Source: an uncultured Lentisphaerota bacterium (GTDB lineage Bacteria > Verrucomicrobiota > Kiritimatiellia > RFP12 > UBA1067). From it: DNA of 64,000 nucleotides. Made by a program: the position numbers and the translations under genes. The notes under the pieces are model-generated. The model made no database searches. It was not told the DNA's origin and saw only the letters and a program-made list of their open reading frames with translations. The stretch lies in contig ONRL01000002.1 in NCBI GenBank assembly GCA_900320225.1, forward strand, positions 3,236-67,235, read 5' to 3'. Below are positions 15,080-39,151 of the stretch, piece after piece (position 1 is the first letter of the stretch; every line of letters starts with the position of its first letter).

Positions 15080-15392
15080 ACCCCCGCTTGACGCCACTTG
15101 ACATGTCGCCCCGGAATTTTTCGCACACGGGTCCCTCCCTGCGCGCCGGCGACGGGACCCCGCCTCGCCCCCATACCCCAACCGCGCCGCTCCGACGCGA
15201 TCCGCCCACATACAGGGGCCCCCTCATTAGACCTTCTGCCCCCGCCCGCCCGCTGACACCCACACGCGCCCCCACACCCACCCCCGCGCTCGACCGCCTG
15301 GCGCCGGTGATTGGTGTCTGCGAAAGTCGCGCGAAAATCTACGAGAAAATAGGGCATCACGGCGCGTCGTGTGGCGCGTGCTGCGCGGGGAA

Positions 15393-15488
15393 TTGGCGCG
15401 CGCGTTGGGTTTGAAACCCACGGAACACGGCGCGAACCTCTGCCATTTTTGGGATTTCGGCGCAGATTTGGCGCGCGCGTTGGGTTTG
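15393..15488. repeat. Two exact copies of the 21-mer TTGGCGCGCGCGTTGGGTTTG, 75 bp apart
   Basis: The copies lie at 15393-15413 and 15468-15488. The first runs into the hairpin GGGTTTGAAACCC. Confidence 0.85.
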
Positions 15489-15706
15489 CGGCGCGTTTCT
15501 CGCATCGTTCTTACACTCTTTTTCGCTCATGATGAGGGCCGATGGTTAGTCCGTCGCGGCTCGCTTTTCGGCCTGTTGCCGAGGTTGCGCTTGTCTTGGT
15601 GCAGGATTCGGCGCGCTTGTGCCGGTGCTGGCGTGATCCTGGCGCGCTGCGAGGATTGCGCGCGCGCATCCGCGACCGATTTTTTGAAAACGAGACCCGG
15701 CGCCAG

Positions 15707-15967
15707 GGCGAAACGAAGCGCGCGCGAAAGTAGTAAATAGTTTTTTTAATAGTCAATTAAATGGTAGTAATGGTAGTGTACTACGCGCATACGCGCGTAC
15801 ACGCGTACACGCGTGAGCGCATGACACGCGACGCGCTACGCACGCGCACGCGTAGCGCGCGGAGTTGCCGTGAGCCAACGGCGAAAAGGCGAAACGAAAT
15901 AGGGTATACCCCCTTTAGGGGGTACCCTATCATTTCGTTTCGCGTGGGCGGCAACGGGCGAAACGAA
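15707..15967. repeat. Iteron-like GGCGAAACGAA motif, 3 direct copies plus 1 inverted
   Basis: Direct copies at 15707-15717, 15888-15898 and 15957-15967. An inverted 10/11 copy lies at 15934-15943. An AT-rich block (15728-15778) sits between the first copy and the others. Confidence 0.8.
15889..15943. repeat. 55-bp imperfect palindrome / cruciform-capable element
   Basis: GCGAAACGAAATAGGGTATACCCCCT TT AGGGGGTACCCTATCATTTCGTTTCGC. The arms pair apart from two small bulges. Confidence 0.85.
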
Positions 15968-15973
15968 ACAGCA

Positions 15974-16028
15974 GGCGAAATTTCGCCATTTCGCCATTTC
16001 GCCATTTCTCACGCGTGCAGGCGTGCAG
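15974..16028. repeat. 14-bp palindrome, then 3 x 8-bp tandem TTTCGCCA, then 2 x 8-bp tandem GCGTGCAG
   Basis: GGCGAAATTTCGCC at 15974-15987. The TTTCGCCA x3 array spans 15981-16004. GCGTGCAG x2 spans 16013-16028. Confidence 0.85.
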
Positions 16029-16098
16029 GCGTACGCGCGCGAGGGAGAAAAAAAAAACCGAACGCAAATTATTTTTTTATTTCTCTATTATTTCCCTG

Positions 16099-16128
16099 TT
16101 GACGCATTACCCAATTATATGATATCAT
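16099..16128 (+). promoter_or_regulatory. Early promoter candidate (TTGACG, 18 bp spacer, TGaTATCAT extended -10)
   Basis: TTGACG at 16099-16104 and TGATATCAT at 16120-16128. It sits about 50 nt upstream of the first plus-strand gene. Confidence 0.55.
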
Positions 16129-16178
16129 ACTCGACGCCAAGCGGGAATAGGCCCGCGGCGACAACGGAGAAACGAATA

Positions 16179-16526
16179 ATGAAAACAATTATCGAGGAAA
16201 ATATCAAAATCGAAACAGTTGACAGCAACGAATTGTGGCGCATATGGCGCGACAGAGAACCGGACGGCAACAACTATGGCTACCCGGTTAGGGTCAGGAA
16301 CCCAACCAGAGCCGTAGAGGCAGTTCTTCGCGGCCAACTCGTTGGTGTACACCAACGCGGCTCTCATTGCGACGTTTACCTGGTTGATGATGCCACAGGG
16401 ACGAACTCCGTACTGATCGGGACGGTGACAAACGTTGACGAGGCATCCGGCCTATACCTATGCCAACCGATGGGAACGCGCAACTCGCCAAACGAATGCC
16501 GTGCTCGTGTATATTGCTACAACTAA
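16179..16526 (+). CDS. First early protein (115 aa), unknown function
   Basis: ATG at 16179 preceded by GGAGAAACGAATA. I trimmed this from the track ORF 16023..16526. Confidence 0.55.
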   Translation: MKTIIEENIKIETVDSNELWRIWRDREPDGNNYGYPVRVRNPTRAVEAVLRGQLVGVHQRGSHCDVYLVDDATGTNSVLIGTVTNVDEASGLYLCQPMGTRNSPNECRARVYCYN

Positions 16527-16557
16527 ACCACGAACCATAAAACAAGGAGAATAGACA

Positions 16558-18138: not shown

Positions 18139-18456
18139 ATGAGCAAACAGGAAGCAAGGAACACGGCTGCGGGCATGGTGCGCGATGCGCTTCAGCAGCT
18201 CGCCAACTGGGAGCGGGTGCAGGACTTGCGCCAGTTCGAGAACACGAAGGAGGAGGCCGCGCGCTTGCTCGACATGGCGGAGACGGCGCTCAACTACTTT
18301 GAGTGGCACTATGACTTCCCGCAGGAAGACGCAGAGTCGAAACTCGAGGCGGTGCGGAACGCCATAGACAACACGGGCAACAAGTGGAACATCGAAGTGC
18401 TGGACGCGATACGCGAAATCGTCTTCCCGCAGGAGGAAAGCGAGGTGACTGAATGA
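18139..18456 (+). CDS. Early hypothetical helical protein (105 aa)
   Basis: RBS GAAAGGACAGGACAAA precedes the ATG at 18139. Confidence 0.55.
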   Translation: MSKQEARNTAAGMVRDALQQLANWERVQDLRQFENTKEEAARLLDMAETALNYFEWHYDFPQEDAESKLEAVRNAIDNTGNKWNIEVLDAIREIVFPQEESEVTE

Positions 18457-18707
18457 AACTGTGCACTAGACGCGAAATCCGGTGGCTTCGGCTGCGGTTC
18501 GCCCGCGACTGGCGCAAACTCGCCATCGTGCCGGTGACGACCGCGGCCTGGATCGCCGCCGTGTCGCTGGCGCTGCCGGCGGACGGCGACCTGACGGGCG
18601 TCGAGACGGCGTTCCTGGTGGCGTCGTTCGCTGCGGTGTTCCTTGGAAACCTCATAACGGCCAACTGGCCGAAGAAGAAAGCGGCGGAAGGCGAGGGGCG
18701 GCCATGA
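18453..18707 (+). CDS. Small membrane protein (84 aa, two hydrophobic segments)
   Basis: ATGA-coupled at both ends. Confidence 0.5.
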   Translation: MKLCTRREIRWLRLRFARDWRKLAIVPVTTAAWIAAVSLALPADGDLTGVETAFLVASFAAVFLGNLITANWPKKKAAEGEGRP

Positions 18708-19033
18708 TTGAAGAAACGCCAATGATACGGCAATACAAGCACTTAAAGTGCGAGGCTCCTCTTGGTAGCCTGTTGCTCTTCAGGCTGGGCGACTTCTTCG
18801 AGGCGTTCGGGGATGACGCCGTCCGCTTGTCGGCGGCCTTTGATGTTCCGTGCGGTCTTCGCGGCGGGGTGTCGATGGCGGGTTGCCTATGCGACTCGTT
18901 TTGGGAGTTGGCGCGCCGACTTACGGCGTCCGGCATTGTGTTTGTGATTGCGGAGGAAATGGAATCTCGCGCTGGTTCGCGTCTCCCGCGGCGCGAGATA
19001 GTGCGCACGGTAAAAGGAGGGCCGATAGAATGA
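18704..19033 (+). CDS. Stand-alone MutS domain I (mismatch-recognition domain) homologue, 109 aa
   Basis: TPMIRQYKHLKCEAPLGSLLLFRLGDFFEAFGDDAVRLS...VSMAG...IVFVIAEEM...REIVRTVKGG aligns by eye, colinearly, with E. coli MutS residues ~10-115 ([38 protein letters not shown]...IPMAG...SVAICEQ...RKVVRIVTPG). The F-x-E mismatch-contact motif is kept (F31, E33). Confidence 0.75.
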   Translation: MIEETPMIRQYKHLKCEAPLGSLLLFRLGDFFEAFGDDAVRLSAAFDVPCGLRGGVSMAGCLCDSFWELARRLTASGIVFVIAEEMESRAGSRLPRREIVRTVKGGPIE

Positions 19034-19260
19034 GCAAAACAACCTACTACATCGTACAGGCGACCACGCGCCTCTTCGCCGCACGCGACAATCTCGGCGT
19101 GAGCCTAGCAATGGGCATGGAGAACGCGGCGCGGTTGACGCTGCCGGAGGCACGTCGCGCGCTGCGTGATGTCCGCCAGGACTACGGCGACAACGGCCCG
19201 CGGCGGTTCCCGCGGATCGTCAAGGCGACAATCGAAACGACAACCATAACGGAGGGTTAG
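19030..19260 (+). CDS. Hypothetical protein (76 aa)
   Basis: Its ATG overlaps the upstream stop. Trimmed from the track ORF 18850..19260. Confidence 0.5.
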   Translation: MSKTTYYIVQATTRLFAARDNLGVSLAMGMENAARLTLPEARRALRDVRQDYGDNGPRRFPRIVKATIETTTITEG

Positions 19261-19602: not shown

Positions 19603-19755
19603 ATGAAAACCTACATCGTATCGACACACCTGGGCGACTTCGAGACTACGGCCTCATCGCCGGAGAAGGCCATCAGCAACATCCGTTTCCGCATCTTCGG
19701 ACGGAGTCCGGCGGCTGCGCGGTTCGTGCAGGGCTGGACGGTTTGCGAAGCGTAA
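19603..19755 (+). CDS. Hypothetical protein (50 aa, MKTYIVSTHLGDFETTASSPEKAISNIRFRIFG...)
   Basis: Below the track's size cut-off. RBS GAAAGGAACACACC precedes the ATG. Confidence 0.4.
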   Translation: MKTYIVSTHLGDFETTASSPEKAISNIRFRIFGRSPAAARFVQGWTVCEA

Positions 19756-21016: not shown

Positions 21017-21229
21017 CTAGCCGTACCAGGGGGCGTCGTCGTAGCCGTCGCTGTGCGACCGAGACGACACCATTAGACAAAACGTCCACACGAGGTATGC
21101 CACAAATGCTACCCTAACACACCATTTTACGACAGGATAGACAGTTTTGTTTTCGGCGTCGTCGCTGTGAAGCCAGCCAAATGCGGCGATAAACAGCGCA
21201 AGCGCAATAAGTATCGTCGCCAGTTTCAT
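21017..21229 (-). CDS. Small two-TM membrane protein (70 aa), operonic with the Mrr-like gene
   Basis: Its start has a 4-nt ATGA overlap with the upstream gene's stop. Hydrophobic segments are LATILIALALFIAAFGWL and VAFVAYLVWTFCLMV. Confidence 0.5.
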   Translation of the reverse strand: MKLATILIALALFIAAFGWLHSDDAENKTVYPVVKWCVRVAFVAYLVWTFCLMVSSRSHSDGYDDAPWYG

Positions 21230-22416
21230 GTGTTTTGTGGTTGTTTGGGGTGGTCGTAGGCGTCAATCAATCGCGCAGCTTCTGATAAGATTCCCCAGAG
21301 TTTTTCTGGCGAAATGGCCTCTGTTGAAATACGGTAGGGTTGAATGTCGGATTGGGTCACACCAAACGCAAGCTTGGAACGATGGCGAAACATCCGGGCG
21401 ATTTCATCAGGTAAAACCAGCTTTGTCCTGTACGCCGCTATGAAACGAAGCAACATCCATAGTTGACTGTGTCTGTTGCGCAATCGCGAATTGTTTTTCA
21501 ATCGCCTAATCACTGTGTCACCAGCGCGATTGATTAGCTCTTGTCTCGCTTCGGCGGACATAATGTTTTCGGGGTCACCATACATTCTCCATAGCTGCCT
21601 CACGACCAGAAAAAGTCCATCTTCGTTTTGTGTATGTCTCTTGCTGGGCTTGGTTGTTTCTGGCTCGACGCCGTAATTGCCATACCTGAAAGAGACTTCG
21701 ACGCCTCCAAAATTGGACCCGTAGTCATCTAGCTCTTGGAGCGCCTTCTCGTAAGTGTCTGCTGAGATGATGCTGACGCCTGCTTTTTGGGAGTATGTAT
21801 TAACCACCCTGATCGGCGGTGTATCACAGACCAGCCAGGCGTCCTGACACGACAGCACCGACGCGGCGGCGCTTATGGCCTGTATGGCGCGGACGATACC
21901 TACCGTGCTGTGATACGCAGATACGGCGATGCGCTTGTCGCCAGATTCCAGGACGAAGTCGCAGCCAGGAACAAAGCGGGTGTCTGTTCTTTCGATATGA
22001 TCATAGGCCCATGTATACGTGGTGAGGCTGCGAACGGTGGCCTCACGTATGGCGCGCGCCTGGTTCTCGATCAGCGCTTTCAGCTGGCTATAGTGAAGTA
22101 ATTGCACCTTGGCCTTATTGGCTAGTTCGTATGCGGACTTAGAAAAGCGTGTGTTGGAAACTACAGCGGCATCGTCGCAATCCCAGAATATTTTTCCCGC
22201 CACCACTTGTTGAACCGCATCATTGCCGACCAAGTTCTCTGAATAAAATTTACACTGTATGGCAATTTTCTTGTTGCCTACATAAGCGATCGCATCTACC
22301 CCCTGATCCCCACTTTCAGGTGTAAGTTTGCATTTGAAGCCGCACGACTCAACCATCGCCAACACGGCTTTCTCGAAGTCGATTCCGTTGTTTACGATGT
22401 AGATTTGCTGTTTCAC
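21226..22416 (-). CDS. Mrr-cat (PD-(D/E)xK restriction-endonuclease-fold) protein with a degenerate second copy and a helical C-terminal domain (396 aa)
   Basis: The N-terminal FEKAVLAMVESCGF...GDQGVDAIAY...KIAIQCKFY...VVSNTRFSKSAYELA matches the Mrr_cat pattern (D ... QxK). Residues ~150-235 repeat the fold without the Lys (DFVLESGDKRIAVSAYHS). It uses a GTG start, and its GC content is visibly lower than the flanks. Confidence 0.65.
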   Translation of the reverse strand: MKQQIYIVNNGIDFEKAVLAMVESCGFKCKLTPESGDQGVDAIAYVGNKKIAIQCKFYSENLVGNDAVQQVVAGKIFWDCDDAAVVSNTRFSKSAYELANKAKVQLLHYSQLKALIENQARAIREATVRSLTTYTWAYDHIERTDTRFVPGCDFVLESGDKRIAVSAYHSTVGIVRAIQAISAAASVLSCQDAWLVCDTPPIRVVNTYSQKAGVSIISADTYEKALQELDDYGSNFGGVEVSFRYGNYGVEPETTKPSKRHTQNEDGLFLVVRQLWRMYGDPENIMSAEARQELINRAGDTVIRRLKNNSRLRNRHSQLWMLLRFIAAYRTKLVLPDEIARMFRHRSKLAFGVTQSDIQPYRISTEAISPEKLWGILSEAARLIDAYDHPKQPQNT

Positions 22417-23789: not shown

Positions 23790-24193
23790 CACCGGAACTT
23801 GAACGTCGCGCAATCTCGTTCATTCGCACGATTGCGAACCGCTGCGAGCGCTGCCTGCGCAGGACGCCGGAGAACTGCCGCAACTGCCCTTCGGCGTGGG
23901 CGAACGAGATCATGGCCGACTACGAGAACGACGGTCGGCCGCCCGCCGTGGACTACACGCTTGCGGCCCGTGAACTGCGGATCCTCGAGGCGCTGCGAAC
24001 CTCGGGACGTCCGCTCTCGGCGACGGAGATCGACCTGTCGGACATTTGCTCGCGGGCGCTCAAGCACTGGACCCTTTGCAGAATGGTGCGGACGGGGCGC
24101 CTGGTCCGCCAGAAGATCAGCGACCATGAGGGCCGCAAGGGCAGGTATCTCTATTTTATCCCAAACAACAAAAACAAAGGAACCACAAAATGA
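23786..24193 (+). CDS. Cys-cluster plus winged-helix protein (135 aa)
   Basis: RBS AAGGAGGACCGC precedes the ATG at 23786. The winged-helix-like segment is RELRILEALRTSGRPLSATEIDLSDICSRALKHWTLCRMVRTGRLVRQK. Confidence 0.4.
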   Translation: MTPELERRAISFIRTIANRCERCLRRTPENCRNCPSAWANEIMADYENDGRPPAVDYTLAARELRILEALRTSGRPLSATEIDLSDICSRALKHWTLCRMVRTGRLVRQKISDHEGRKGRYLYFIPNNKNKGTTK

Positions 24194-25467
24194 AAATCGT
24201 CTCTCTTGAGATGGCGAACGTGAAGCGCATAAAGGCGCTGCGGCTTGAGCCCACCGAAAACGGGCTCACGATAATCGGAGGGAAGAACGGGCAGGGGAAG
24301 ACGTCCGTTCTCGACGCGATAGCCTATGCGCTAGGCGGCGAGAACTACGCGCCAAGCTCGCTGAAGCGCGACGGCGCAGTGGGCGACACGTTCATCCACA
24401 TCGAGACAGACGACGGCCTCGTCATAGAACGCAAGGGGAAGAACGCCAACCTCACCGTAACCGACTCAACCGGCAAGCGTGAGGGCCAGAGGCTCCTCAA
24501 TTCCCTGCTGTCCAAGCTTGCAATCGACCTTCCGAAGTTCCTCAACGCCAACGACAAGGAAAAGGCCGACATTCTACTGCAGATACTCGGCATCGGAGAC
24601 CAGCTCGCCGCCATCGACCGCGACATAAAGGCGAAGTACGACCAGCGGCGCGCCGTAGGGCAGCTTGCCGACCAGAAGGAGAAGGCCGCCGCAGATATGC
24701 CCTGGCACGAGGACGCGCCAAAGGAGAAGGTGTCTGTGAAGGAACTCATAGACAAGCAGCAGGAGATACTGGCTCGAAACGGAATCAAAGAAGAGCACCG
24801 TCGGAAGTACGAATCCAACAAGGCGGAACTATTGCGCGTCAGCGGAGAAATCGACCGTCTGCGTCAGCGTCAGAAAGAATTGTCGGAAGAGGTGCGTTCG
24901 GCTGAATCCGAGGATTTCACGCTTGAATCCACAACTGAACTTGAAAAGCAGATCGCCAACTTCGAGGAGACGAACCGCAGGGTCGCGGAGAACGAGGACC
25001 GCACTCGCCGGATGGAGGAGGCGTCCGCCATGCGAGAACAGTACGACTCGCTTACCGCGGAGATCGAGGATGCCCGTGCAAAGCGCCTCGCCCTTCTCGA
25101 CGGAGCGGATTTGCCCCTTCCCGGATTGTCAGTCGAAGACGGAGTGCTGATGCTGAACGGCAAGGCGTGGGACTGCCTCTCGGGGTCCCAGCAACTGATC
25201 GTCGGGGCCTCTATTGCCTCCAGGCTCAACCCCAACTGCAAGTTCGTCCTCATCGACAAGCTTGAACAGCTCGACCTCGACAGCCTCGGGGACTTCGACT
25301 CCTGGCTGAAGGAGCAAGGGCTCCAGTGCATCGGCACGCGCGTTTCCACGGGTGGCGAATGCTCGATCGTGATAGAGGACGGCGAGGCTGAGGTACCGGA
25401 CGGCACCGTCATTGTGCCCAAGACCAAGGCAGACCCCGCCCCGCTGGGCGACCTGGACGATTTGTAG
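24190..25467 (+). CDS. SMC/SbcC/RecF-like recombination ATPase (425 aa)
   Basis: Walker A GKNGQGKTSVLDAIAYALGG, a long central coiled coil, an LSGSQQ signature-like motif and FVLIDKLEQLD. Confidence 0.6.
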   Translation: MKIVSLEMANVKRIKALRLEPTENGLTIIGGKNGQGKTSVLDAIAYALGGENYAPSSLKRDGAVGDTFIHIETDDGLVIERKGKNANLTVTDSTGKREGQRLLNSLLSKLAIDLPKFLNANDKEKADILLQILGIGDQLAAIDRDIKAKYDQRRAVGQLADQKEKAAADMPWHEDAPKEKVSVKELIDKQQEILARNGIKEEHRRKYESNKAELLRVSGEIDRLRQRQKELSEEVRSAESEDFTLESTTELEKQIANFEETNRRVAENEDRTRRMEEASAMREQYDSLTAEIEDARAKRLALLDGADLPLPGLSVEDGVLMLNGKAWDCLSGSQQLIVGASIASRLNPNCKFVLIDKLEQLDLDSLGDFDSWLKEQGLQCIGTRVSTGGECSIVIEDGEAEVPDGTVIVPKTKADPAPLGDLDDL

Positions 25468-25553: not shown

Positions 25554-26618
25554 ATGAAGATCATCAAGGGTAAGACAAAGCCCAAGGGCCTGCGCATCGT
25601 CGTGTACGGCCCACACGGGCTGGGCAAGACAACTCTTGCCAGCAAACTGCCGGATGCGCTGTTCTTCGACTACGAAAACGGGACGCACGGCATAGATGTG
25701 GCGAAAGTTGACGAATCGGACCTTCCCCGCTCGTATGCGGCGGTAAGGGGTGCGCTCGACGAACTGAAGCGCAACCCGCAGGGGTTCAAGAACCTCGTGA
25801 TCGACTCCGCCGACAAGCTCGAGGAGGCTCTGGACAAGACCTTCTCCGCGGAAAAGGGAATCGAAAGCGTGTTTGCGGTCAACGACTACGGGCGCACGAT
25901 CGCAGGTCACAAGCAGCAGATGGCCGCAATAATCGACAAGGCCGCAGATCTTGCGAATGCAGGAGTGAATGTCATCTGGATAGCCCATGAGACGCCGCGC
26001 AAGGTGGAGGTCCTTGAAGGACAGGGGGCATACGACCACCACGAAATGAAGCTCTCCAAGACGGTCACGCCGCTCTTCATGGAATCGGCTGACGTCGTGA
26101 TCTTCTGTTCCTACAAGACATTCATGGTTGCCGCCAACAAGCAAGCCGGCGAGACAAAAGGACATGTCGAAGGAGGAAAGCGCTGGTGCTGGACGACTCC
26201 GCACAACGAATGGGACGCCAAGCACCGCGCCTGCATCGAGCTTCCCGACGACTGTTCCCTTGACAAAATGGCGGAACTGCTGCCAAAGGCCCTGGCTGCC
26301 GCCACTTCTAGGAGCGAAAGCGTGGCTGTTGTTGAGGCGAAACAAGCAACTGTTTCTGCACCCGCCCCCACCCCTAAGGCGGAAGACTCGCATTCTTCCG
26401 ACAAGCCGGCGCTGGCGGAGCTCAGGCGGCTCCTCGGCAACTACGGCGTGTCGGAGGACCAGATACGCACCTTCGCGGACGCGCAGCCGAAGCTCAAGGG
26501 GCGCTACGGGACGGACTTCTCCTTTGCAACCGCAAGGATGGCAGACTGGCCCGACGAGGCGCTGCAGTGGCTTTCGCGGAACATGGAAAAGATCGCAGCA
26601 AAAATCAAGGACAACTAA
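25554..26618 (+). CDS. Sak4-like / AAA_24 RecA-fold ATPase with a C-terminal extension (354 aa)
   Basis: The N-terminus KPKGLRIVVYGPHGLGKTTLASKLPDALFFDYENG is typical of AAA_24. It is followed by a DUF669 gene, the usual partner. Confidence 0.6.
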   Translation: MKIIKGKTKPKGLRIVVYGPHGLGKTTLASKLPDALFFDYENGTHGIDVAKVDESDLPRSYAAVRGALDELKRNPQGFKNLVIDSADKLEEALDKTFSAEKGIESVFAVNDYGRTIAGHKQQMAAIIDKAADLANAGVNVIWIAHETPRKVEVLEGQGAYDHHEMKLSKTVTPLFMESADVVIFCSYKTFMVAANKQAGETKGHVEGGKRWCWTTPHNEWDAKHRACIELPDDCSLDKMAELLPKALAAATSRSESVAVVEAKQATVSAPAPTPKAEDSHSSDKPALAELRRLLGNYGVSEDQIRTFADAQPKLKGRYGTDFSFATARMADWPDEALQWLSRNMEKIAAKIKDN

Positions 26619-26915: not shown

Positions 26916-27413
26916 ATGGCAAACGAAAACGGTGCAATCGGCTGGGACGACGACGTCTCCGAATCTGAAGTCAAGGGCGGCGGCAAACGCGAAGATTTCG
27001 TGGTTCTGCCGGACGGCGAATATCCCTTCGCCGTCGCGAAGGTAGAGCGCGGAACGTTCGCGGGATCGAAGAAGGTCCCGCCCTGCAACAAGGTGGATGT
27101 AGGGGTTATCATCGACGGCGGCGACAAGGGTCGCTCCTACGTCACCAAGATGTTCCTCATGCACACAACGACGCTTGGGTTCATCTACGAGTTCCTGACC
27201 TCGCTGGGGCTGCACAAGAAAGGCGAGGGGGCGGGCCCTATCCCCTGGGGCAAGGTCCAGAACGGCATGGAGGGCCGCTGCAAGGTCTCCTCCAGGACGT
27301 ACACCACGCGCGACGGCGAGAGCCGCACGTCGAACGAGGTGAAGAAATGGCTCGCGCCGGCTGCTGCATCGGAACAGTCGGGATTGTCCGACGATCTGGA
27401 CGACCTGAAATGA
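26916..27413 (+). CDS. DUF669-family (phage SSB-like) protein (165 aa)
   Basis: RBS AAAAGGAGTAAGAAC precedes the ATG. It sits beside a Sak4-like ATPase and has an acidic C-terminal tail (SDDLDDLK). Confidence 0.55.
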   Translation: MANENGAIGWDDDVSESEVKGGGKREDFVVLPDGEYPFAVAKVERGTFAGSKKVPPCNKVDVGVIIDGGDKGRSYVTKMFLMHTTTLGFIYEFLTSLGLHKKGEGAGPIPWGKVQNGMEGRCKVSSRTYTTRDGESRTSNEVKKWLAPAAASEQSGLSDDLDDLK

Positions 27414-30070
27414 CACTGCGTCCGTATCAGAAAAAGGCCGTCGAGGCAGTGGAGGCGGAGTTCGGCAAACCGGACATCCGCTCCACCCTCATTGTCCTCG
27501 CGACGGGGTGCCACGCCATTGGCGAGAAAGTGCTTCTCGCCAATGGCGACTCGGCAAGCGTAGAGAACGTCCATGCCGGAGATTTTTTGCTCGGCATGGA
27601 CGGAACGCCGCGTCGCGTACTTGCCGTCCATCATGGCCATAAGCCATGCTATGAAATATCGCCAATCAAAGGCAAGCAGTTTGTCGTCACGGAAGACCAC
27701 ATGCTTTCGCTCGTGAAAACATCCATACGCCGAAACGGATTTCCGTCGCAGATTGGCGGCGATGTCGTTGACCTTACGGTAAAAGAATATATCGGCAAAT
27801 CAAAAACGTACAAGCATCAGCACAAGCTCTTTCGTGCGCCGATGATTGCATTCCCCGTGAAGGAGACACCCCTGCCGATACCCCCGTACATTGTCGGCGT
27901 CATGCTTGGGGACGGCGGACTAAAGTACAGCATAAACGTTACCACAGCAGAGCCGGAAGTGCTCGAGGCGTTGAGTTCGTATGCAAGATCGCTTGGCTAT
28001 ACGCTACGACCTGAACCTGCCGGTCTTGCAAATACGTGGATATTTCAGACTGGCGAAATCGGCTGCAACGGATCGCGTTTGCGCGGGATGCTCGCTCGTT
28101 TGGGGCTTTGGGGTTGCGGTAGCGGAGAAAAGCGCATACCGCGACAGTATCTGACGTCTTCAATCAAGGACAGGCTAGAGCTGCTTGCCGGTCTCATTGA
28201 CACAGACGGCTCAAAATCAAGCAATGGAAGTTGTGACTACATAACAAAGTCGCCGCGTCTGGCAGACGACATTTGTTTCGTGTGTAGATCGCTTGGTCTT
28301 GCGGCATACTCAAGCGTCTGCAAAAAATCAATTAAAAGCATTGGGTTCGTTGGTACGTATTACCGGATATCGGTTAGCGGAGACTTGTCTGTGATTCCAA
28401 CGCGAGTGCCTCGCCGCAAGTTTGACGTTAGGCGTCAGAAGAAATCAGTTTTGCGTACAGGTTTTTCAATACGGCCAGTCGGCGTGAAAGAATACTTCGG
28501 CTTTACAGTTGACGGCGACAACCGCTATTTGCTTGACGATTTCACCGTCACGCACAACTGCGGGAAGACCATCATCTTCTCGCACCTCGCCCAGCGCGAA
28601 GTGATGCGGGGCGGACGTGTCCTTATCCTCGCACACCGCGGCGAACTCCTCCAGCAGGCAATCGACAAGCTCTACAAGGCCACTGGGATAGAAGCCGGGC
28701 TTGAGAAGGCCGAGGAGACGAGCGAAGTCTCAAGCTTCGATCTGCCGTATACGGTGGTCGTCGGATCCGTCCAGTCGATGAAATCGCAGAGACGGCTTGA
28801 CCGATTCCGCAGCGACGAGTTTTCGCTTATCGTGATCGACGAGTGCCACCATGCGCTTACCAGCACTTATCGTGCTGTTATAGACCATTTTCCCCATGCG
28901 CGCCTCCTCGGCGTCACCGCCACACCGGACCGCGGCGACCTGCGCGACCTCTCCGAGGTGTTCCAGACGATTTCCTACGAGTATTCGATAGTGGACGCCA
29001 TCCGCGACGGCTACCTGTGCCCGATACAGGCGCAGACAGTGCCTCTAAGGATTGACCTCACCCAGGTCTCCAAGCAGGGCGGCGACTACCAGGCCTCATC
29101 CCTCGGCAATGCGCTCGACCCGTATCTGAGGCAGATTTGCCGCGAAATAAAGGAACGCTGCCATGACAGAAAGACGATTGTTTTTACTCCTCTTATCGCG
29201 ACCTCGCGAAAGATGTTGCAGATTTTTGTGGAAGAGGGCGTACAGGAAGTGCGCGAAGTTAACGGAGAAAGTACAGACCGAGCCGATATCCTTGACTGGT
29301 TCTCTCAGGCTCCGGCAGGCTGCGTACTTCTCAATTCTATGCTTCTCACGGAAGGATATGACGAGCCGTCTGTTGATTGCATTGTTGTTCTTCGGGCAAC
29401 GAAGGTTCGCGCCCTATTTGTCCAGATGGTTGGGCGTGGAACCCGCCTCTCGCCTTCCACCGGAAAGCAGAATCTGCTTCTTCTCGATTTTCTGTGGCTT
29501 ACATCGACGCACGACCTGTGCCGTCCTGCTTGTCTCCTGTCTGACGATCCAGAGGTGTGCGAGACGATAACAAAGAAGCAGGAAAGCAAGGACGGCCAGG
29601 CGGCGCTCGACCTGACGGCGGAAACTCTGGAATCGGCGGAATCCGAGACCGTGAAGAAACGGGAGGACGCGCTGGCGAAGAAGCTCCGCGAACAGGCACA
29701 CAAAAAGGGGAAGCTGATAGACCCGCTTGCCTATGCCTCGATGATCGGCTCCGAAGACCTCACGAAGGCTATTCCGGCATCACTCGACCAGTCGAACCGC
29801 CCCACGATGGAACAGCTGGACCGGCTTGAACGCCTCGGGTTTGCCTGCCCCGGCTCCGCATCCGCCGCCGATGCGTTATTGACAGCCTATCAACAGCGTG
29901 TTGACAGCGGGCTTTCCACCCCGCGCCAGATCAAGTTTCTGTCGTCGCGCGGCTTCCGCAACGTGGAGACGTGGCCCATGCAGGCCGCGCAGAAGCTCAT
30001 CAACCGCTTTGCGGCCTGCGGGTGGAACCGCATTCCCGCCGGAATCAATCCGGAGACCTACACGCCATGA
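27410..30070 (+). CDS. SF2 DEAH-box helicase (ResIII/Helicase_C type) interrupted by an intein (886 aa precursor)
   Basis: The P-loop is split as LATG | intein | CGKT. Other helicase motifs are VIDECHH (motif II), GVTATPDR (III) and TEGYDEPSVDCIVVLRATKVRALFVQMVGRGTR (V-VI). The start MTLRPYQ is ATGA-coupled. Confidence 0.8.
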   Translation: MTLRPYQKKAVEAVEAEFGKPDIRSTLIVLATGCHAIGEKVLLANGDSASVENVHAGDFLLGMDGTPRRVLAVHHGHKPCYEISPIKGKQFVVTEDHMLSLVKTSIRRNGFPSQIGGDVVDLTVKEYIGKSKTYKHQHKLFRAPMIAFPVKETPLPIPPYIVGVMLGDGGLKYSINVTTAEPEVLEALSSYARSLGYTLRPEPAGLANTWIFQTGEIGCNGSRLRGMLARLGLWGCGSGEKRIPRQYLTSSIKDRLELLAGLIDTDGSKSSNGSCDYITKSPRLADDICFVCRSLGLAAYSSVCKKSIKSIGFVGTYYRISVSGDLSVIPTRVPRRKFDVRRQKKSVLRTGFSIRPVGVKEYFGFTVDGDNRYLLDDFTVTHNCGKTIIFSHLAQREVMRGGRVLILAHRGELLQQAIDKLYKATGIEAGLEKAEETSEVSSFDLPYTVVVGSVQSMKSQRRLDRFRSDEFSLIVIDECHHALTSTYRAVIDHFPHARLLGVTATPDRGDLRDLSEVFQTISYEYSIVDAIRDGYLCPIQAQTVPLRIDLTQVSKQGGDYQASSLGNALDPYLRQICREIKERCHDRKTIVFTPLIATSRKMLQIFVEEGVQEVREVNGESTDRADILDWFSQAPAGCVLLNSMLLTEGYDEPSVDCIVVLRATKVRALFVQMVGRGTRLSPSTGKQNLLLLDFLWLTSTHDLCRPACLLSDDPEVCETITKKQESKDGQAALDLTAETLESAESETVKKREDALAKKLREQAHKKGKLIDPLAYASMIGSEDLTKAIPASLDQSNRPTMEQLDRLERLGFACPGSASAADALLTAYQQRVDSGLSTPRQIKFLSSRGFRNVETWPMQAAQKLINRFAACGWNRIPAGINPETYTP
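27509..28558 (+). mobile_element. Intein (350 aa) with a LAGLIDADG homing-endonuclease domain
   Basis: It begins with Cys (CHAIGEKVLLANG) and has block B VTEDHMLSL. The LAGLIDADG motifs are YIVGVMLGDGGL and LELLAGLIDTDGS. It ends ...DDFTVTHN, followed by a +1 Cys (CGKT). Its GC content is lower than that of the exteins. Confidence 0.85.
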
Positions 30071-33218: not shown

Positions 33219-33432
33219 AGGCATGGTGTCCGAAATGTGCGAGTACGCCGACGGGATCGCAAACCCGATGATAAGCGACCGCATCAAAGAATACGGCGAC
33301 CTCATCCTCGCCGCCGTTGAAGCAGAGCGAAAGGAATGGCAGAAGGAGCGGCTGACTTGGGAGCGGCGCGTGAAGATGGCCGCGAGTGTGGCTAAGGCAA
33401 AAGGCGGCAAAGTTGTGGAGGCGGGGAAATGA
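33208..33432 (+). CDS. Hypothetical protein (74 aa)
   Basis: RBS GGAGAAGGAGGACGGCA precedes the ATG at 33208. Confidence 0.45.
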   Translation: MTTEGMVSEMCEYADGIANPMISDRIKEYGDLILAAVEAERKEWQKERLTWERRVKMAASVAKAKGGKVVEAGK

Positions 33433-35096
33433 GGACCTTGAACACAGTAGACCTTTTCTGCGGCGCAGGCGGCGCATCCACAGGCATGGAGGACGCCTTG
33501 CACCGCATGAAACTGCACCACAAGGGGCTTGCAATAAATCATTGGGCCGTGGCCGTGGACACAATGCGCGCAAACCACCCCGACATTGACACCAAGCGCA
33601 TGAGCATTGAAGAAGCGGTGCCGGCCGACCTCGTTCCGGGCGGCGAGGTTGACTTGCTCTGGGCGTCCCCGTCCTGCACACACCATAGCCGCGCCAAAGG
33701 CGGCAAGCCGCGCAGCAACCAACTGCGCGCACAGCCGGAGCTTGTGCTGACATGGCTCGATCAGCTTTTTGTGCGCCGTATCATCATTGAGAACGTCCCC
33801 GAATTTGTGGATTGGGGGCCACTCTCGAAGGACGGCAAGCCGATTGAGAAATTAAAAGGGTCATGCTTTAGGGCTTGGGTCGCGGCTATCGAGGCGCGCA
33901 ATTACGCCGTTGAATGGCGCGTAGTGAATTGCGCCGACTACGGCGACGCAACGAGCCGCCGCCGATTTTTCCTTAAGGCCGTCCGGCGCGGGTGCGGAAG
34001 GATATGCTGGCCGGAGCCTACTCACGCCGAGAACCCGCAGCCGGATTTATTCCGCAAGCTGAAGCCGTGGCGCGGCGTCCGCGAGTGCCTTGACCTATCC
34101 GACACGGGCCGGAGTATTTTCAACCGCAAGAAGCCATTGGCAAAGAATACCCTCCGCCGAATTGCTGTCGGCTTGCGTAAGTTTTGCGGGCTTGATTTTC
34201 AGATGGATATGCTGGGTGCGGGCGAGAACGACGAAACGCGGGTATTGCCGACGACCGCGCCGTTGCGGACACAGCACACGGCGAACCGCACGGCCATCGT
34301 GCGCCAGTTTGTGGTGCGCATGAACAGGAACTGCGACGCCGAGAGCGTGGACGCGCCGCTTTCCACTACGACGACGAAGGAACACCACGCCTTGTGTTCG
34401 CCGCTCATTCTGGATCACTTCAAGAACGGCGAGGCACAGAGCGTGGACGCGCCTATTGGAACGCAGACGACGCACGACCGTTTCAGCATGGTTACGCCGT
34501 ATCTCATAACAGAGCAGACGAACAACGCGCCGCGAGGGATCGACAAGCCGCTCCGGACGCAGACGATGGTGTGCAAAGACTACCTCTGCACTCCGCTAAT
34601 TTTGGGGCAACAGGGTGGCGCGGCTTGCCGACCGATTGACGAGCCATGCCCGACGATTGCGACTGGCGGCGCGGTGCGGATGATTACGCCGCTTGTTTTG
34701 GGGCGCGACGCTTGCGCACAATGCCGCCCGGTGACGAAGCCCATGCCGACCCTTACTTGCGGCGGCGCGATGCGCGTAATCACGCCGCTGATCCTTGACA
34801 TGAGCCGACCAGGAGGAGCCGATGGCGGACACATCCGCACGGCGGACAAACCGATTCAGACCTTGACGACGTGTGACAACGTGCAGGGCGTTTTCCCCGT
34901 GTTGGAAGACGGGCGCGTGATCGACATCCGCATCCGTATGCTGAAGCCGTCCGAACTTGCGGCGGCGCACAGCTTCCCGAAGGACTACGTGCTTACGGGC
35001 AACCGTGGTGAACAGGTGAAGCAGATCGGGAACAGCGTACCAGTTATGACAGCCGCCGCCATGTGCGAGGCAGACTTTCGGGAGATGGCATCATGA
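33429..35096 (+). CDS. DNA (cytosine-5)-methyltransferase with a 7-fold tandem module array in the variable region (555 aa)
   Basis: Motif I DLFCGAGGAS, motif IV ASPSCTHHS, motif VI ENVPEF, motif VIII SRRRFF, motif X QIGNSVPV. Between motifs VIII and IX lie seven modules of about 32 aa (residues ~271-492), each with xP[LIMC]xT[QTLI][TA]. Confidence 0.85.
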   Translation: MRTLNTVDLFCGAGGASTGMEDALHRMKLHHKGLAINHWAVAVDTMRANHPDIDTKRMSIEEAVPADLVPGGEVDLLWASPSCTHHSRAKGGKPRSNQLRAQPELVLTWLDQLFVRRIIIENVPEFVDWGPLSKDGKPIEKLKGSCFRAWVAAIEARNYAVEWRVVNCADYGDATSRRRFFLKAVRRGCGRICWPEPTHAENPQPDLFRKLKPWRGVRECLDLSDTGRSIFNRKKPLAKNTLRRIAVGLRKFCGLDFQMDMLGAGENDETRVLPTTAPLRTQHTANRTAIVRQFVVRMNRNCDAESVDAPLSTTTTKEHHALCSPLILDHFKNGEAQSVDAPIGTQTTHDRFSMVTPYLITEQTNNAPRGIDKPLRTQTMVCKDYLCTPLILGQQGGAACRPIDEPCPTIATGGAVRMITPLVLGRDACAQCRPVTKPMPTLTCGGAMRVITPLILDMSRPGGADGGHIRTADKPIQTLTTCDNVQGVFPVLEDGRVIDIRIRMLKPSELAAAHSFPKDYVLTGNRGEQVKQIGNSVPVMTAAAMCEADFREMAS

Positions 35097-35254: not shown

Positions 35255-35531
35255 AAGCTACAACATGAACATTGACACGGGCGAAAAGACTTGGCTCACG
35301 CCGCGCTACATCATCGACGCACTCGGGCCGTTCGACCTCGACCCGTGTTGTCCGCCCAAAATGCCGTGGCGGACTGCGGCGGAGATGGTATGCCGCCCCG
35401 CCGACGGGCTCGCCGTGGACTGGCGCGGGACTTTGGCCCGTCTGCGCGAAAGCGGGCTTGTAGGGGCTTTGGTGCGGCTTAGAAGCGGCACAGACACAGA
35501 CAACAACAGTGAAACGGAGGACAACCAATGA
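35247..35531 (+). pseudogene. N-terminal fragment of a phage Dam-family N6-adenine MTase (motif IV and everything after it missing)
   Basis: WLTPRYIIDALGPFDLDPCCPP...ADGLAVDWRG matches the family's N-terminus (W.TP...f.lD...DGL..W.G). The sequence then diverges with no NPPY/DPPY motif in any frame. It ends at the RBS of the next gene. Confidence 0.5.
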
Positions 35532-36235
35532 GCAAAAAATACGAGTTCACAGGCGAGACGAAGGAGTGGTGTGGATGCACCCTGCACCGTATTCGCGCCG
35601 TCGTCTCGTTCGCCTATATCAAAGAGGGCGAGATGGGCGGATGGATCGAGACAGAAAGCAACCTATCCCATGACGGTAACGCGTGGGTCTCCGGCGACGC
35701 GAGTGTCTCCGGCAACGCGGAGGTCTCCGGCAACGCGAGGGTCTACGGCAACGCGTGGGTCTACGGCAACGCGGAGGTCTACGGCAACGCGTGGGTCTCC
35801 GGCGACGCGAGTGTCTCCGGCAACGCGGAGGTCTCCGGCAACGCGAGGGTCTCCGGCAACGTGAGAGTCTACGGCAACGCGGAGGTCTACGGCAACGCGG
35901 AGGTCTACGGCAACGCGTGGGTCTACGGCAACGCGAGGGTCTCCGGCAACGCGAGAGTCTCCGGCAACGCGAGAGTCTACGGCAACGCGGAGGTCTCCGG
36001 CGACGCGAGTGTCTCCGGCAACGCGGACTATGTTGTCTTTAAGAACTGCTGGTCGTCGATGCGGTGGTTTACCTATACGCGCTCCAACAAAAAGTGGAAA
36101 GTTGGGTGCTTCTACGGCACGGGCGAAGAGCTGATAAAGAAGGCGTACGCCGATTCCGAAAAGAGCGGCAAATGCTATGAGGCGATAGTCCGCGCGATGG
36201 AAACTATCGAGGCGGCGATAACCAAGGAGGACTAA
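35528..36235 (+). CDS. Hexapeptide-repeat (probable beta-helix) protein (235 aa)
   Basis: About 20 consecutive V-[SY]-G-[ND]-A-x hexads are flanked by unique N- and C-terminal domains (N: ...GGWIETESNLSHDGNAWV; C: ...YVVFKNCWSSMRWFTYTRSNKKWKVGCFYGTGEEL). Confidence 0.7.
   Translation: MSKKYEFTGETKEWCGCTLHRIRAVVSFAYIKEGEMGGWIETESNLSHDGNAWVSGDASVSGNAEVSGNARVYGNAWVYGNAEVYGNAWVSGDASVSGNAEVSGNARVSGNVRVYGNAEVYGNAEVYGNAWVYGNARVSGNARVSGNARVYGNAEVSGDASVSGNADYVVFKNCWSSMRWFTYTRSNKKWKVGCFYGTGEELIKKAYADSEKSGKCYEAIVRAMETIEAAITKED
35687..36028 (+). repeat. 19 tandem 18-bp repeats (consensus GTCTMCGGCAACGCGNRG), all in frame within the CDS
   Basis: Read directly from the sequence. The units differ at only 1-4 positions. 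A degenerate unit precedes the array at ~35669. Confidence 0.9.
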
Positions 36236-37644: not shown

Positions 37645-37958
37645 ATGACCCGACAATAGACATTTGCGACAACACCTACACGCGCAACACGACAACCGAC
37701 ATAGACAAGCGCCGAGAGTTCGGGCGGCTTGAGGGCCATACATCGAATACCGTAGGCCATCACTATTTGCGCTTAACGATGTCCGAGCCGCGAACACGCA
37801 CAGAATGGCGGTGGGGAGAGATTGCCAGGACAATAGGAGCGGACAAGGCAATCACTACCCGCGTCGGCATCCGCCTTCACGCAGGCCAGGTCAAGCAGTT
37901 GCGCGACTTCCTCAACAAGTGGCTGCAGTGCCACTATAAGGAAGGAGCCACAAAGTGA
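37641..37958 (+). CDS. Hypothetical protein (105 aa)
   Basis: GTG start with a GTGA overlap onto the upstream stop. Confidence 0.45.
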   Translation: MNDPTIDICDNTYTRNTTTDIDKRREFGRLEGHTSNTVGHHYLRLTMSEPRTRTEWRWGEIARTIGADKAITTRVGIRLHAGQVKQLRDFLNKWLQCHYKEGATK

Positions 37959-39022: not shown

Positions 39023-39151
39023 ATGAGGATTTATATTTCTGGTTGTATGACGGACCATCCCGACATCAACTGCCCCGCGTTCAGCGCGGAGGAGTTCGTG
39101 CCGACGCCGCATCCGAAGCCGAGGTTCCAGCAGGAGGAGCTGTTCAAATGA
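39023..39151 (+). pseudogene. 42-codon remnant resembling the N-terminus of a DUF4406 (deoxyribosyltransferase-like) protein
   Basis: MRIYISGCMTDHPDINCPAFSA matches the family's opening (M.IYI.GPMtG.p..N.paF.a). The rest of the fold is absent. Confidence 0.35.

Follow-up and report, generated by a model that had tools for sequence, protein, structure and literature searches.

A stand-alone MutS domain I gene with a conserved mismatch-wedge motif in a temperate phage that infects bacteria of the rumen or gut

The domain by which MutS recognises mismatches (domain I, MutS-I) has been reported from polyvalent proteins that phages and conjugative elements encode, which were the first place where this domain was noticed outside MutS and were regarded as the only one (Iyer, Burroughs, Anand, de Souza, Aravind 2017, PMC5512222). 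It has also been described in the Msl (MutS-like) proteins, i.e., MutS-I-only accessory proteins of diversity-generating retroelements (DGRs) with a length of 112-283 aa (Wu et al. 2018, PMC5758913). At DGRs, host MutS restricts the mismatch-rich heteroduplex intermediates by a factor of 5-10 (Macadangdang et al. 2024 preprint, bioRxiv 10.1101/2024.11.15.621889). Within the domain, Phe-x-Glu is the mismatch-contact motif of the mismatch-binding subunit (PMC3848065).

Recombination between diverged sequences is held back to a large extent by host mismatch repair (MMR). Yet, in lytically growing phages, recombination shows an odd insensitivity to MMR, and whether phages titrate or inhibit it was raised as a question by De Paepe et al. 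(2014). A conserved, wedge-retaining and signalling-dead MutS domain in phage early regions would be a concrete candidate for blunting host MMR. In this work, we have analysed a 109-aa gene of this domain, which belongs to a temperate phage from bacteria of the rumen or gut and is carried on a stretch of 64,000 nucleotides (the window). An earlier sequence-only reading had known of no characterised phage protein of this kind; the kind itself is not wholly new, as MutS-I outside MutS was already known from the polyvalent and Msl proteins.

The gene and its product

Two features define the gene.

18704-19033, plus strand: stand-alone MutS domain I gene, 109 aa (Pfam, phmmer on PDB sequences, AlphaFold2 and Foldseek)
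18791-18802, plus strand: codons of D30-F31-F32-E33, the Phe-x-Glu mismatch wedge (E. coli D35-F36-Y37-E38, by alignment)

The product matches the Pfam profile MutS_I (PF01624) with 53.2 bits (E 4e-14, gathering cut-off 20.6 bits), covering profile positions 1-104 of 113. In a phmmer search of PDB sequences, residues 4-108 are colinear with residues 10-119 of E. coli MutS (E 3e-9), and F31-F32-E33 align with F36-Y37-E38. The AlphaFold2 model (pLDDT 91.7, pTM 0.82) has the domain I fold, a mixed beta-sheet with three helices. A Foldseek search of the PDB matched it to MutS domain I of E. coli, Taq and human MSH3 (TM 0.81-0.84, rmsd ~2 A, 107-109 columns), with the E. coli domain superposing at TM 0.83. 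The 109-aa frame, its colinearity with the MutS N-terminus and the Phe-x-Glu pair had all been read from the sequence before, and they are borne out here. All the sequence blocks named at that time are found as well (TPMIRQYKHLK, LLLFRLGDFFEAFGDDA, SMAG and IVRTV), and the profile search and superposition that had been proposed as checks gave the significant matches above. The product is thus domain I of MutS in isolated form, and it carries the wedge motif.

The ORF ends at residue 109, before the connector, core/lever and clamp domains II-IV. The NCBIfam MutS models are matched at positions 2-109 only, at scores far below the equivalog level (59.3 bits vs a cut-off of 480 for NF003810, and 53.4 bits vs 641.7 for TIGR01070), and ATPase domain V is not among the matched parts. 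When two full-length MutS proteins were compared with the whole window by tblastn, only residues ~4-115 found a match, at 18698-19027, and neither Pfam nor PHROG gave a match in the ORFs neighbouring the gene. These searches agree with the earlier statement that no later MutS domain follows, and no other part of MutS was found anywhere in the phage genome. The missing connector, clamp and ATPase domains are those which turn mismatch binding into MutL recruitment. In addition, the clade of the window copy is without the PYH (72-74) and TPGT (115-118) motifs near the connector-domain junction, and has K at the position of E. coli L18 in the QQYLRL stretch.

The identical protein occurs on 9-12 metagenome contigs, the longest being 67.7 kb. 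As these contigs are also 100% identical in DNA, they provide no polymorphism data.

Gene neighbourhood and related copies

The gene is one of a run of small ORFs that are coupled in translation; this run starts opposite the packaging genes. The features of this run that matter here are as follows.

16099-16128, plus strand: weakly supported match to a sigma-70-like promoter, heading the small-ORF run
18453-18707, plus strand: upstream ORF of 84 aa with hydrophobic stretches, GC3 0.84, no family match
19030-19260, plus strand: downstream ORF of 76 aa, a possible partner of the MutS_I protein, no family match
19603-19755, plus strand: ORF of 50 aa in the same conserved block, conserved in the related phage loci L003, L065 and L066

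The start codon of the MutS_I gene (18704-18706) overlaps the TGA of the upstream ORF (18705-18707), and its own TGA (19031-19033) overlaps the ATG of the downstream ORF (19030-19032). Both junctions thus read ATGA, so the ATGA coupling claimed before can be read directly from the DNA. The promoter match has 10 of 12 hexamer bases and an extended TG, in a scan which gave 3 sites vs 1.7 expected by chance. From its position, its strand and this promoter-like site only, we infer that the run is an early operon.

In six related phages (the window, L003, L004, L065, L066 and L070), the MutS_I gene has kept its place within a strand-coherent series of small ORFs. The 76-aa ORF is found by tblastn in L066 and L003 at 39-41% identity with the order kept, and its alignment contains the motifs TYYIVQ, EAR and RRFPRIIK. 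It is absent from L065, L068, L070 and more distant loci, and a single-sequence AlphaFold2 model of its product is unusable (pLDDT 63). The 50-aa ORF is 58-72% identical in L003, L065 and L066, where it lies downstream of their MutS_I genes. Beyond such close relatives, an all-against-all comparison of 14 stand-alone loci revealed no conserved neighbour besides MutS_I itself. MutS_I is more conserved than the terminase only in the comparisons with L003, L004, L066 and L070. With L065, which is the closest relative, the reverse holds, the terminase being 79% and MutS_I 56% identical.

Overall, the gene is part of a widespread mobile-element protein family, as judged from sequence. There are at least 48 stand-alone copies, all intact and of consistent length (about 90-125 aa), in contigs of phages and integrative elements. 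The wedge is the best-conserved element among these 48 homologues: the preceding G is kept in all 48, its F in 46 (the other two have Y) and its E in 45, and it is also retained in the five fused phage copies. For the pair L003 and L065 we obtained a dN/dS of 0.13 at a dS of 0.43; this is the only informative pair, as the window gene is saturated against its relatives (dS >1.5). These values indicate that the family is under purifying selection.

The stand-alone copies are 43% to 72% identical to a Kiritimatiellae MutS N-terminus, and the nearest named cellular relatives are two Kiritimatiellae MutS fragments (P0312 and P0372); the host lineage thus has a MutS. The gene was probably captured from the MutS of this lineage (Kiritimatiellae/PVC), and PVC/Kiritimatiellae is also the probable host of the phage. 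A word-indexed search with the window protein returned only itself and P0002, and the latter was rejected as a stand-alone relative, being a contig-end fragment of a Myxococcaceae MutS. Among INPHARED phages, megablast with 20 kb gave no match, and the tblastn matches were rejected, being full-length mutS genes (H4, 876 aa; H8, 895 aa) whose records are host-contaminated or UNVERIFIED. A close stand-alone copy in a cultured phage did not turn up in this collection.

The contexts of the copies in other elements are diverse. Some adjoin recombination genes: a YqaJ exonuclease lies immediately downstream in L044 and L059, a Sak4-like gene is near the copy in L046, and RecT is near the copy in L068. 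A weak ArdA match is also near this L068 copy. In L064 and L070, the MutS_I gene and free-standing ArdcN or ArdcN+MPTase genes are 1-2 kb apart, and in L071 and L072 it belongs to integrase-DUF3846-MutS_I-PcfJ clusters. Fused copies are joined to ART-PolyVal (L022), to ParB_N+HTH_ParB (L051 and L054), or lie inside a 4997-aa protein (L019). The ArdC-N, conjugative-type and ParB contexts are about as frequent as the recombination-gene context. The recombination setting proposed earlier is seen in some copies, but the ArdC-N and integrase-DUF3846-PcfJ settings are at least as frequent.

In the window phage itself, the following genes are relevant.

24190-25467, plus strand: SbcC-like AAA_15/AAA_23 ATPase (phrog_1499, phrog_77; Pfam)
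25554-26618, plus strand: Sak4-like single-strand annealing protein (phrog_124, E 2e-38)
45306-57734, minus strand: polyvalent protein of 4142 aa (LPD38, LPD23 and Sno-type helicase; Pfam)

The SbcC-like ATPase and the Sak4-like protein form a recombination module 5-7 kb downstream of the MutS_I gene, and RusA is also encoded in the window. Of the Sak4/SSB module that the sequence-only reading had named, the Sak4-like part stands, but no SSB was found; the ORF at 26916-27413 is without a family match. Further counter-defence genes are the polyvalent protein, in which Pfam gave no MutS_I match, Tad2-like proteins and two large methyltransferases. No ArdcN match was found among the genes of the phage genome with Pfam data, and a divergent ArdC-N may be present among the orphan ORFs.

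Possible roles of the isolated domain

Our main reading, with a probability of roughly 0.35, is that the protein caps phage DNA where it is mismatched or distorted, without signalling, which would keep host MutS off recombination heteroduplexes. The protein would be made early in infection and would insert its wedge where bases of phage DNA are mispaired, unpaired or destabilised in another way, the main candidate targets being heteroduplexes from the Sak4-type annealing and recombination module. As it would be unable to signal, it could act as a non-productive cap competing with host MutS, and phage recombination intermediates would then escape MutS/MutL-dependent rejection or excision, giving relaxed (homeologous) recombination. 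Shielding of mismatches or titration of the host pathway had been suggested before; this remains conjecture, and it is strengthened by the family size, the purifying selection, the conserved wedge, the recombination neighbours and the Msl precedent. Direct poisoning of MutS or MutL, on the other hand, has gained no support from any analysis run.

Several observations speak against the cap. MutS holds DNA by the clamp domains of both subunits, so an isolated domain I may bind weakly, and the present protein is not basic (pI 5.9). The association with recombination genes is not universal among the loci. In addition, the lower identity of MutS_I than of the terminase in L065 is a divergence more typical of contact with a host protein than of a plain DNA binder.

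The main rival to the cap reading is that the domain shields the DNA of its own element shortly after entry: it would bind single-stranded or distorted stretches beside ArdC-N-type factors, against host nucleases and with no role for mismatch repair as a target. We find it rather unlikely. It follows the proposal made for polyvalent MutS-I, which occurs with ArdC-N in ~80% of cases and is predicted to recognise ssDNA features of the element as it enters or replicates (Iyer 2017, PMC5512222), and it fits the ArdcN neighbours, the weak ArdA match, the integrase-DUF3846-MutS_I-PcfJ clusters and the fusions described above, as well as the other counter-defence genes aboard the window phage. This phage, however, has no ArdcN match; a tailed phage injects dsDNA, which makes an argument from ssDNA less strong here than with conjugative elements; and the strict retention of Phe-x-Glu is not obviously required for generic ssDNA binding. 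The faster divergence of MutS_I in L065, as in arms-race proteins, and the seemingly host-derived sequence would suit instead a protein decoy, in which the free domain would bind a host protein in place of DNA (the connector or clamp surfaces of MutS against which domain I normally packs, MutL, or the beta clamp), with repair disabled or the partner hijacked as a result; an N-terminal beta-clamp-binding site in E. coli MutS is reportedly known, which would count in its favour. Such a decoy is nevertheless improbable, as the free domain must compete with the tethered one, the most conserved residues are those of the DNA wedge and form no surface patch, and the clade has K in place of L18 and has lost PYH and TPGT near the connector junction. 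In the solved MutS-MutL complex, moreover, the MutL interfaces are on the connector and ATPase domains, i.e., outside domain I, which is disordered (PMC4521584).

Still less probable, in our view, is a targeting module, that is, a polyvalent protein split into genes, in which MutS_I would recognise distorted DNA and recruit or regulate a small phage protein such as the 76-aa product of 19030-19260. The ATGA coupling of both junctions, the order of MutS_I, 76-aa and 50-aa genes kept in L003 and L066 despite ~30% terminase identity, and the fact that elsewhere the domain is always one piece of a multi-domain protein argue for it, while the patchy distribution of the 76-aa ORF and its lack of a recognisable family or usable model argue against it. 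We give very little credit to an Msl-type accessory factor of a DGR, which is largely refuted here: Pfam gave no RVT match in the scanned larger ORFs, Avd was likewise not found, the repeat search revealed no TR/VR-like direct repeat pair, and the scan for an RT motif was negative in the window, in the remaining 3.5 kb that close the circle of the 67.5-kb genome and in all the stand-alone loci fetched. Equally hard to believe is a functionless remnant of a captured host mutS. Although the gene is a fragment of a cellular gene and its neighbours are orphan ORFs, the low dN/dS, the number of intact copies of similar length with a conserved wedge, the position kept in six phages and the translational coupling of both start and stop all oppose it, and the rest of mutS has left no trace in the tblastn search.

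If the cap reading is extended to the whole family, MutS_I may be the first inhibitor of mismatch repair that a virus naturally encodes, a minimal 'headless' sensor that would occupy mismatches without signalling, by which mobile elements, including DGRs via Msl, would protect their heteroduplexes and raise recombination-driven mosaicism. We put this forward tentatively and regard it as somewhat doubtful. A function found here would extend to polyvalent MutS-I and DGR Msl, both of which have been known from sequence since 2017-2018. An MMR inhibitor would offer a portable and transient MMR-off switch for recombineering, entry-phase protection would add a new class to the anti-restriction toolkit, and a 12-kDa blocker of either MMR or nucleases could aid genome engineering.

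Comparison with known systems

One of the closest described systems is the MutS-I module of polyvalent proteins. Both concern the same domain on a mobile element outside MutS, with a predicted origin from cellular MutS and a predicted binding of unusual DNA for the benefit of the element. Moreover, the window phage encodes a polyvalent protein, and in its relatives the stand-alone gene adjoins ArdC-N. They differ in that the present domain is a separate 109-aa gene, whereas the polyvalent form is a module in a polypeptide of 2-15 domains. The typical co-occurrence with ArdC-N is seen in L064 and L070 but not in the window phage, and a PVC/Kiritimatiellae host is probable here, in place of Bacteroidetes or Firmicutes.

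Msl, which we compared by its description, is likewise a small protein with the mismatch-recognition domain only, carried on mobile or phage-associated elements, and the biology of its element creates mismatched heteroduplexes. The window phage, unlike the Msl elements, has no DGR cassette (RT, Avd, template/variable repeat). As no reverse transcriptase was found in the phage genome and the window copy stands unfused, this copy is set apart from both the Msl and the polyvalent forms.

Compared with domain I of bacterial MutS (E. coli 1E3M, Taq 1EWQ), the protein shares 36% identity, a TM of 0.83, the order of secondary structures and Phe-x-Glu, but it has no domains II-V and hence no ATPase, clamp, dimerisation or MutL interface. 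It resembles the N-terminal domain of ArdC in being a predicted non-catalytic DNA-binding module of the first-expressed regions of mobile elements, and the two co-occur both as fusions and as neighbours. Their folds and families are unrelated, and the binding of ssDNA and the anti-restriction activity of ArdC have experimental support, whereas the role of MutS-I is read from sequence. Finally, the proposed effect is like that of the dominant-negative MutL E32K used in recombineering and DGR engineering, i.e., a transient suppression of MMR by which mismatched annealing products would survive; MutL E32K, however, is an engineered mutant of a host protein that acts at the MutL step, and is neither a natural viral protein nor a mismatch binder.

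Identity and predicted fold of the MutS_I gene

The sequence-only reading had described an ATGA-coupled 109-aa ORF that is colinear with the N-terminal ~105 residues of MutS, retains the Phe-x-Glu mismatch-contact pair and is followed by no connector, core, clamp or ATPase domain, and this description is correct in all details open to checking.

18704-19033, + strand: MutS_I gene, 109 residues, ATGA overlaps at both ends

Its start codon (ATG at 18704) shares bases with the TGA (18705-18707) that ends an 84-aa ORF upstream, and its own TGA (19031-19033) does so with the ATG at 19030 of the 76-aa ORF that follows. In a phmmer search against PDB sequences, residues 4-108 are colinear with residues 10-119 of E. 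coli MutS (E 3e-9). The Phe-x-Glu pair, which in MutS stacks on and hydrogen-bonds to the mismatched base (PMC3848065), is found as F31-F32-E33, and a tblastn comparison of two full-length MutS with the window matched only their residues ~4-115, at 18698-19027. Two of the checks proposed with that reading, a profile search and a structural superposition, agree with it. The Pfam MutS_I profile (PF01624) is matched over positions 1-104 of 113 with an E-value of 4e-14 and 53.2 bits, above the gathering score of 20.6 bits, and in a Foldseek comparison the AlphaFold2 model (13 sequences; pLDDT 91.7, pTM 0.82) superposes on the domain I structures of human MSH3 and of MutS from E. coli, Taq and Neisseria (TM 0.81-0.84, rmsd ~2 A). 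Overall, the gene is a MutS domain I and nothing else. The sole PHROG match is the N-terminus of a full-length MutS family, and since NCBIfam gives only partial MutS matches below threshold (59 bits against a cut-off of 480), there is no dedicated family for such proteins. Family searches with the neighbouring ORFs gave no match.

The phage genome and the neighbourhood of the gene

The window covers 64 kb of a ~67.5-kb genome that closes to a circle; the 3.5 kb separating its two ends was recovered, and an identical MutS_I protein is found on contigs of 67,647 and 67,669 bp. A long + strand run of small, mostly orphan ORFs begins after a ~1.3-kb gap, followed farther along by genes for an SbcC-like ATPase, a Sak4-like annealing protein, an intein-bearing helicase, a primase and RusA, and the same strand carries two large DNA methyltransferases, a Tad2-like protein and a tyrosine integrase. 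From this content and layout, the replicon is a temperate tailed phage.

Features of the phage genome
1-15211, -: packaging and structural genes (terminase, portal, major head)
15212-16550: ~1.3-kb gap between the divergent packaging and early blocks, no convincing ORF; possible site of regulatory, origin or packaging signals
16099-16128: tentative sigma-70-like, promoter-like site inside this gap (weak evidence)
21017-22416, -: Mrr_cat-type restriction-like nuclease (396 aa) and 70-aa ORF, inside the + strand early region
27347-30070, +: SNF2/DEAD-type helicase with Hint/homing-endonuclease (intein) matches
33429-35096, +: DNA methyltransferase, ~550 aa, PHROG matches split by large insertions
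35528-36235, +: beta-solenoid protein (YdcK repeat, bactofilin-like) in the replication/methylase region, encoded by ~26 tandem 18-nt units (35620-36087)
37955-38848: third SAM-methyltransferase-like ORF
39043-40680, +: DNA methyltransferase, ~550 aa, PHROG matches split by large insertions
40705-41610, +: Tad2-like protein, 301 aa, extra sequence around the domain
45306-57734, -: polyvalent protein, 4142 aa, with Sno-type helicase (AAA_34, Helicase_C_4), LPD23 and LPD38
L073 12107-12409: Tad2-like protein, 100 aa, in the 3.5 kb outside the window

The PHROG "terminase" matches to the N-terminal part of the 27347-30070 helicase are spurious, being accounted for by its intein matches. The lower GC3 at 21017-22416 (0.57-0.63 versus ~0.8) suggests a recently acquired moron, and the three methyltransferase or methyltransferase-like ORFs suggest a heavy investment in self-methylation. 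The polyvalent protein, with no recognised domain over about half its length, is probably a virion-delivered counter-defence protein; the phage also has two proteins with Tad2-like (Thoeris anti-defence 2) domains. As for the host, a Kiritimatiellae MAG obtained from cattle rumen contains a terminase 63% identical to that of the window, the names of records (STEW18, XIEF21) point to ruminant gut metagenomes, and among named cellular MutS fragments the nearest come from Kiritimatiellae and Lentisphaeria; the host is likely a member of the PVC group.

In related phages (contigs L065, L003, L004, L066 and L070), MutS_I is placed alike, within a coupled run of small ORFs opposite the packaging genes and often overlap-coupled; in L003 and L066, homologues of the 76-aa ORF and of a 50-aa ORF come after it. 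Their terminases are 79% (L065) or ~30% (the other four) identical to that of the window. Compared with L065, MutS_I (56% identical) diverges faster than the terminase, whereas in distant relatives it is the better conserved of the two, and therefore it is a persistent but fast-evolving early gene, possibly subject to exchange.

No conserved neighbour was found outside this phage group. Two themes recur near MutS_I. One is recombination and replication: Sak4-like genes in the window and L046, a YqaJ exonuclease immediately 3' of MutS_I in L044 and L059, RecT in L068 and a helicase in L049. The other is first-in, counter-defence functions, including ArdcN+MPTase in L064, a stand-alone ArdcN with DUF3560 in L070, a weak ArdA match in L068, integrase-DUF3846-MutS_I-PcfJ clusters in L071 and L072, and ParB, either encoded next to MutS_I (L060) or fused to it.

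Loci of the counter-defence theme
L064 5842-8083 and L070 6823-9372 (two unrelated phage contigs): stand-alone ArdC-N genes, with or without MPTase domain, 1-2 kb upstream of stand-alone MutS_I
L060 7977-9825: stand-alone MutS_I directly upstream of a ParB-like gene
L051 7134-8309 and L054 3362-4540, also L053 and L055 (viral): ParB_N and HTH_ParB fused to C-terminal MutS_I

In L064 and L070, the two domains that polyvalent proteins combine, ArdC-N and MutS-I, thus look as if divided between neighbouring genes.

A recurrent family of stand-alone MutS_I proteins

Stand-alone MutS_I proteins are recurrent and form a large family. Searched exhaustively with HMMER, 1.84 billion representatives gave 2633 matches at E <= 1e-3, the best of which are short proteins (105-123 aa) stopping just past the last strand of domain I. 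The identity of these short matches to the window protein reaches 54%, compared with 45% for the best full-length MutS. A profile of the window clade added at least 17 further clusters (108-119 aa, 50-56% identical) and more distant ones. Our scan of IMG/VR turned up 13 short MutS_I ORFs lying inside viral contigs. In other cases there, the domain is part of a giant ORF (L019, 4997 aa; L022, together with ART-PolyVal) or of the ParB_N+HTH_ParB+MutS_I proteins of ~392 aa, an architecture that we did not find described in the literature examined. BFVD also holds small uncultured-phage proteins auto-annotated "MutS domain I".

The wedge motif is retained and selected, and the gene is under purifying selection. 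The columns best conserved among 48 stand-alone sequences belong to the wedge: G29 in all 48, F31 in 46 (Tyr in the remaining 2), E33 in 45 and D30 in 41. For L003 and L065, the one unsaturated orthologue pair (89% amino-acid identity), dS is 0.43 and dN 0.06, i.e. a ratio of 0.13.

Identity of the stand-alone copies to a Kiritimatiellae MutS N-terminus ranges from 72% down to 43% (the window clade), which fits a gene taken from the host lineage that later diverged, or one captured several times. In the window clade, the two motifs flanking the connector-domain junction, PYH and TPGT, are lost, and we infer that intramolecular constraints were relaxed. In some stand-alone copies the domain is extended, either by a charged helical tail of ~100 aa or by ~90 aa at the N-terminus (P0127, 213 aa; L004 8001-8702; P0141, 205 aa); these extensions have no family match and may bind partners.

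Possible functions and relation to known MutS-I proteins

While the structural reading is correct, the functional one is plausible but unproven. We tentatively favour, at a probability of about 0.35, a cap that sits on mismatches in the phage's heteroduplex DNA, gives no signal and keeps host MutS away. The protein lacks all MutS parts for DNA clamping, ATP hydrolysis, dimerisation and MutL recruitment; it would be made early in infection, bind mispaired or destabilised DNA and compete with host factors. We prefer the cap because it fits the only known specificity of the domain, the precedent set by Msl proteins of DGRs, and the recombination genes found near MutS_I; it also bears on the open question of why mismatch repair (MMR) affects recombination in phage lytic growth so little (De Paepe 2014). 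Against it, domain I on its own may be a weak DNA binder, the protein has a pI of 5.9 and so is not basic, and the association with recombination genes is not universal.

The chief rival, rather unlikely in itself, is protection of the element's DNA during entry, beside ArdC-N-type factors, for which the ArdC-N, PcfJ and polyvalent contexts speak. A decoy that acts at the protein level, on MutS, MutL or the clamp, is improbable, since in the MutS-MutL structure (PMC4521584) the MutL interfaces lie on other domains, and the conserved residues are those of the DNA wedge. That MutS_I serves the conserved 76-aa neighbour as a targeting module is about as improbable. A role in a diversity-generating retroelement (DGR) is very improbable, as a search of the phage genome for RT, Avd and a TR/VR pair found none, and a dead remnant, set beside the purifying selection, is hardly credible.

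To a specialist, MutS-I on a mobile element is no great surprise. A large family with a clearly selected wedge makes the long-standing question of phage interference with MMR testable by simple assays.

Iyer et al. 2017 reported MutS-I in polyvalent proteins encoded by phages and conjugative elements, ~80% of them also with ArdC-N, called these the only site of MutS-I outside MutS, and predicted that it binds ssDNA features of the element during entry or replication. The Msl group was defined by Wu et al. 2018 from small accessory proteins, MutS-like, in 16 DGR cassettes, and is described by Macadangdang et al. 2024 as homologous to the mismatch-recognition domain; in the latter study, deletion of host mutS raised DGR retrohoming 5-10-fold, and MMR therefore restricts DGR heteroduplex intermediates. 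The sequence-only reading knew of no characterised phage protein of this kind; we likewise found no experimental test of polyvalent MutS-I, Msl or stand-alone MutS-I in the literature, but MutS-I on mobile elements had been described (Iyer et al. 2017; Wu et al. 2018). The window gene shares the domain with both groups. However, its phage has no RT, Avd or TR/VR, unlike Msl cassettes, and the gene is unfused, unlike polyvalent MutS-I, which places it outside the defining context of either. MutS-I on mobile elements has thus been noted already in comparative genomics, though uncharacterised; what is novel here is its stand-alone, non-DGR form in a phage early region.
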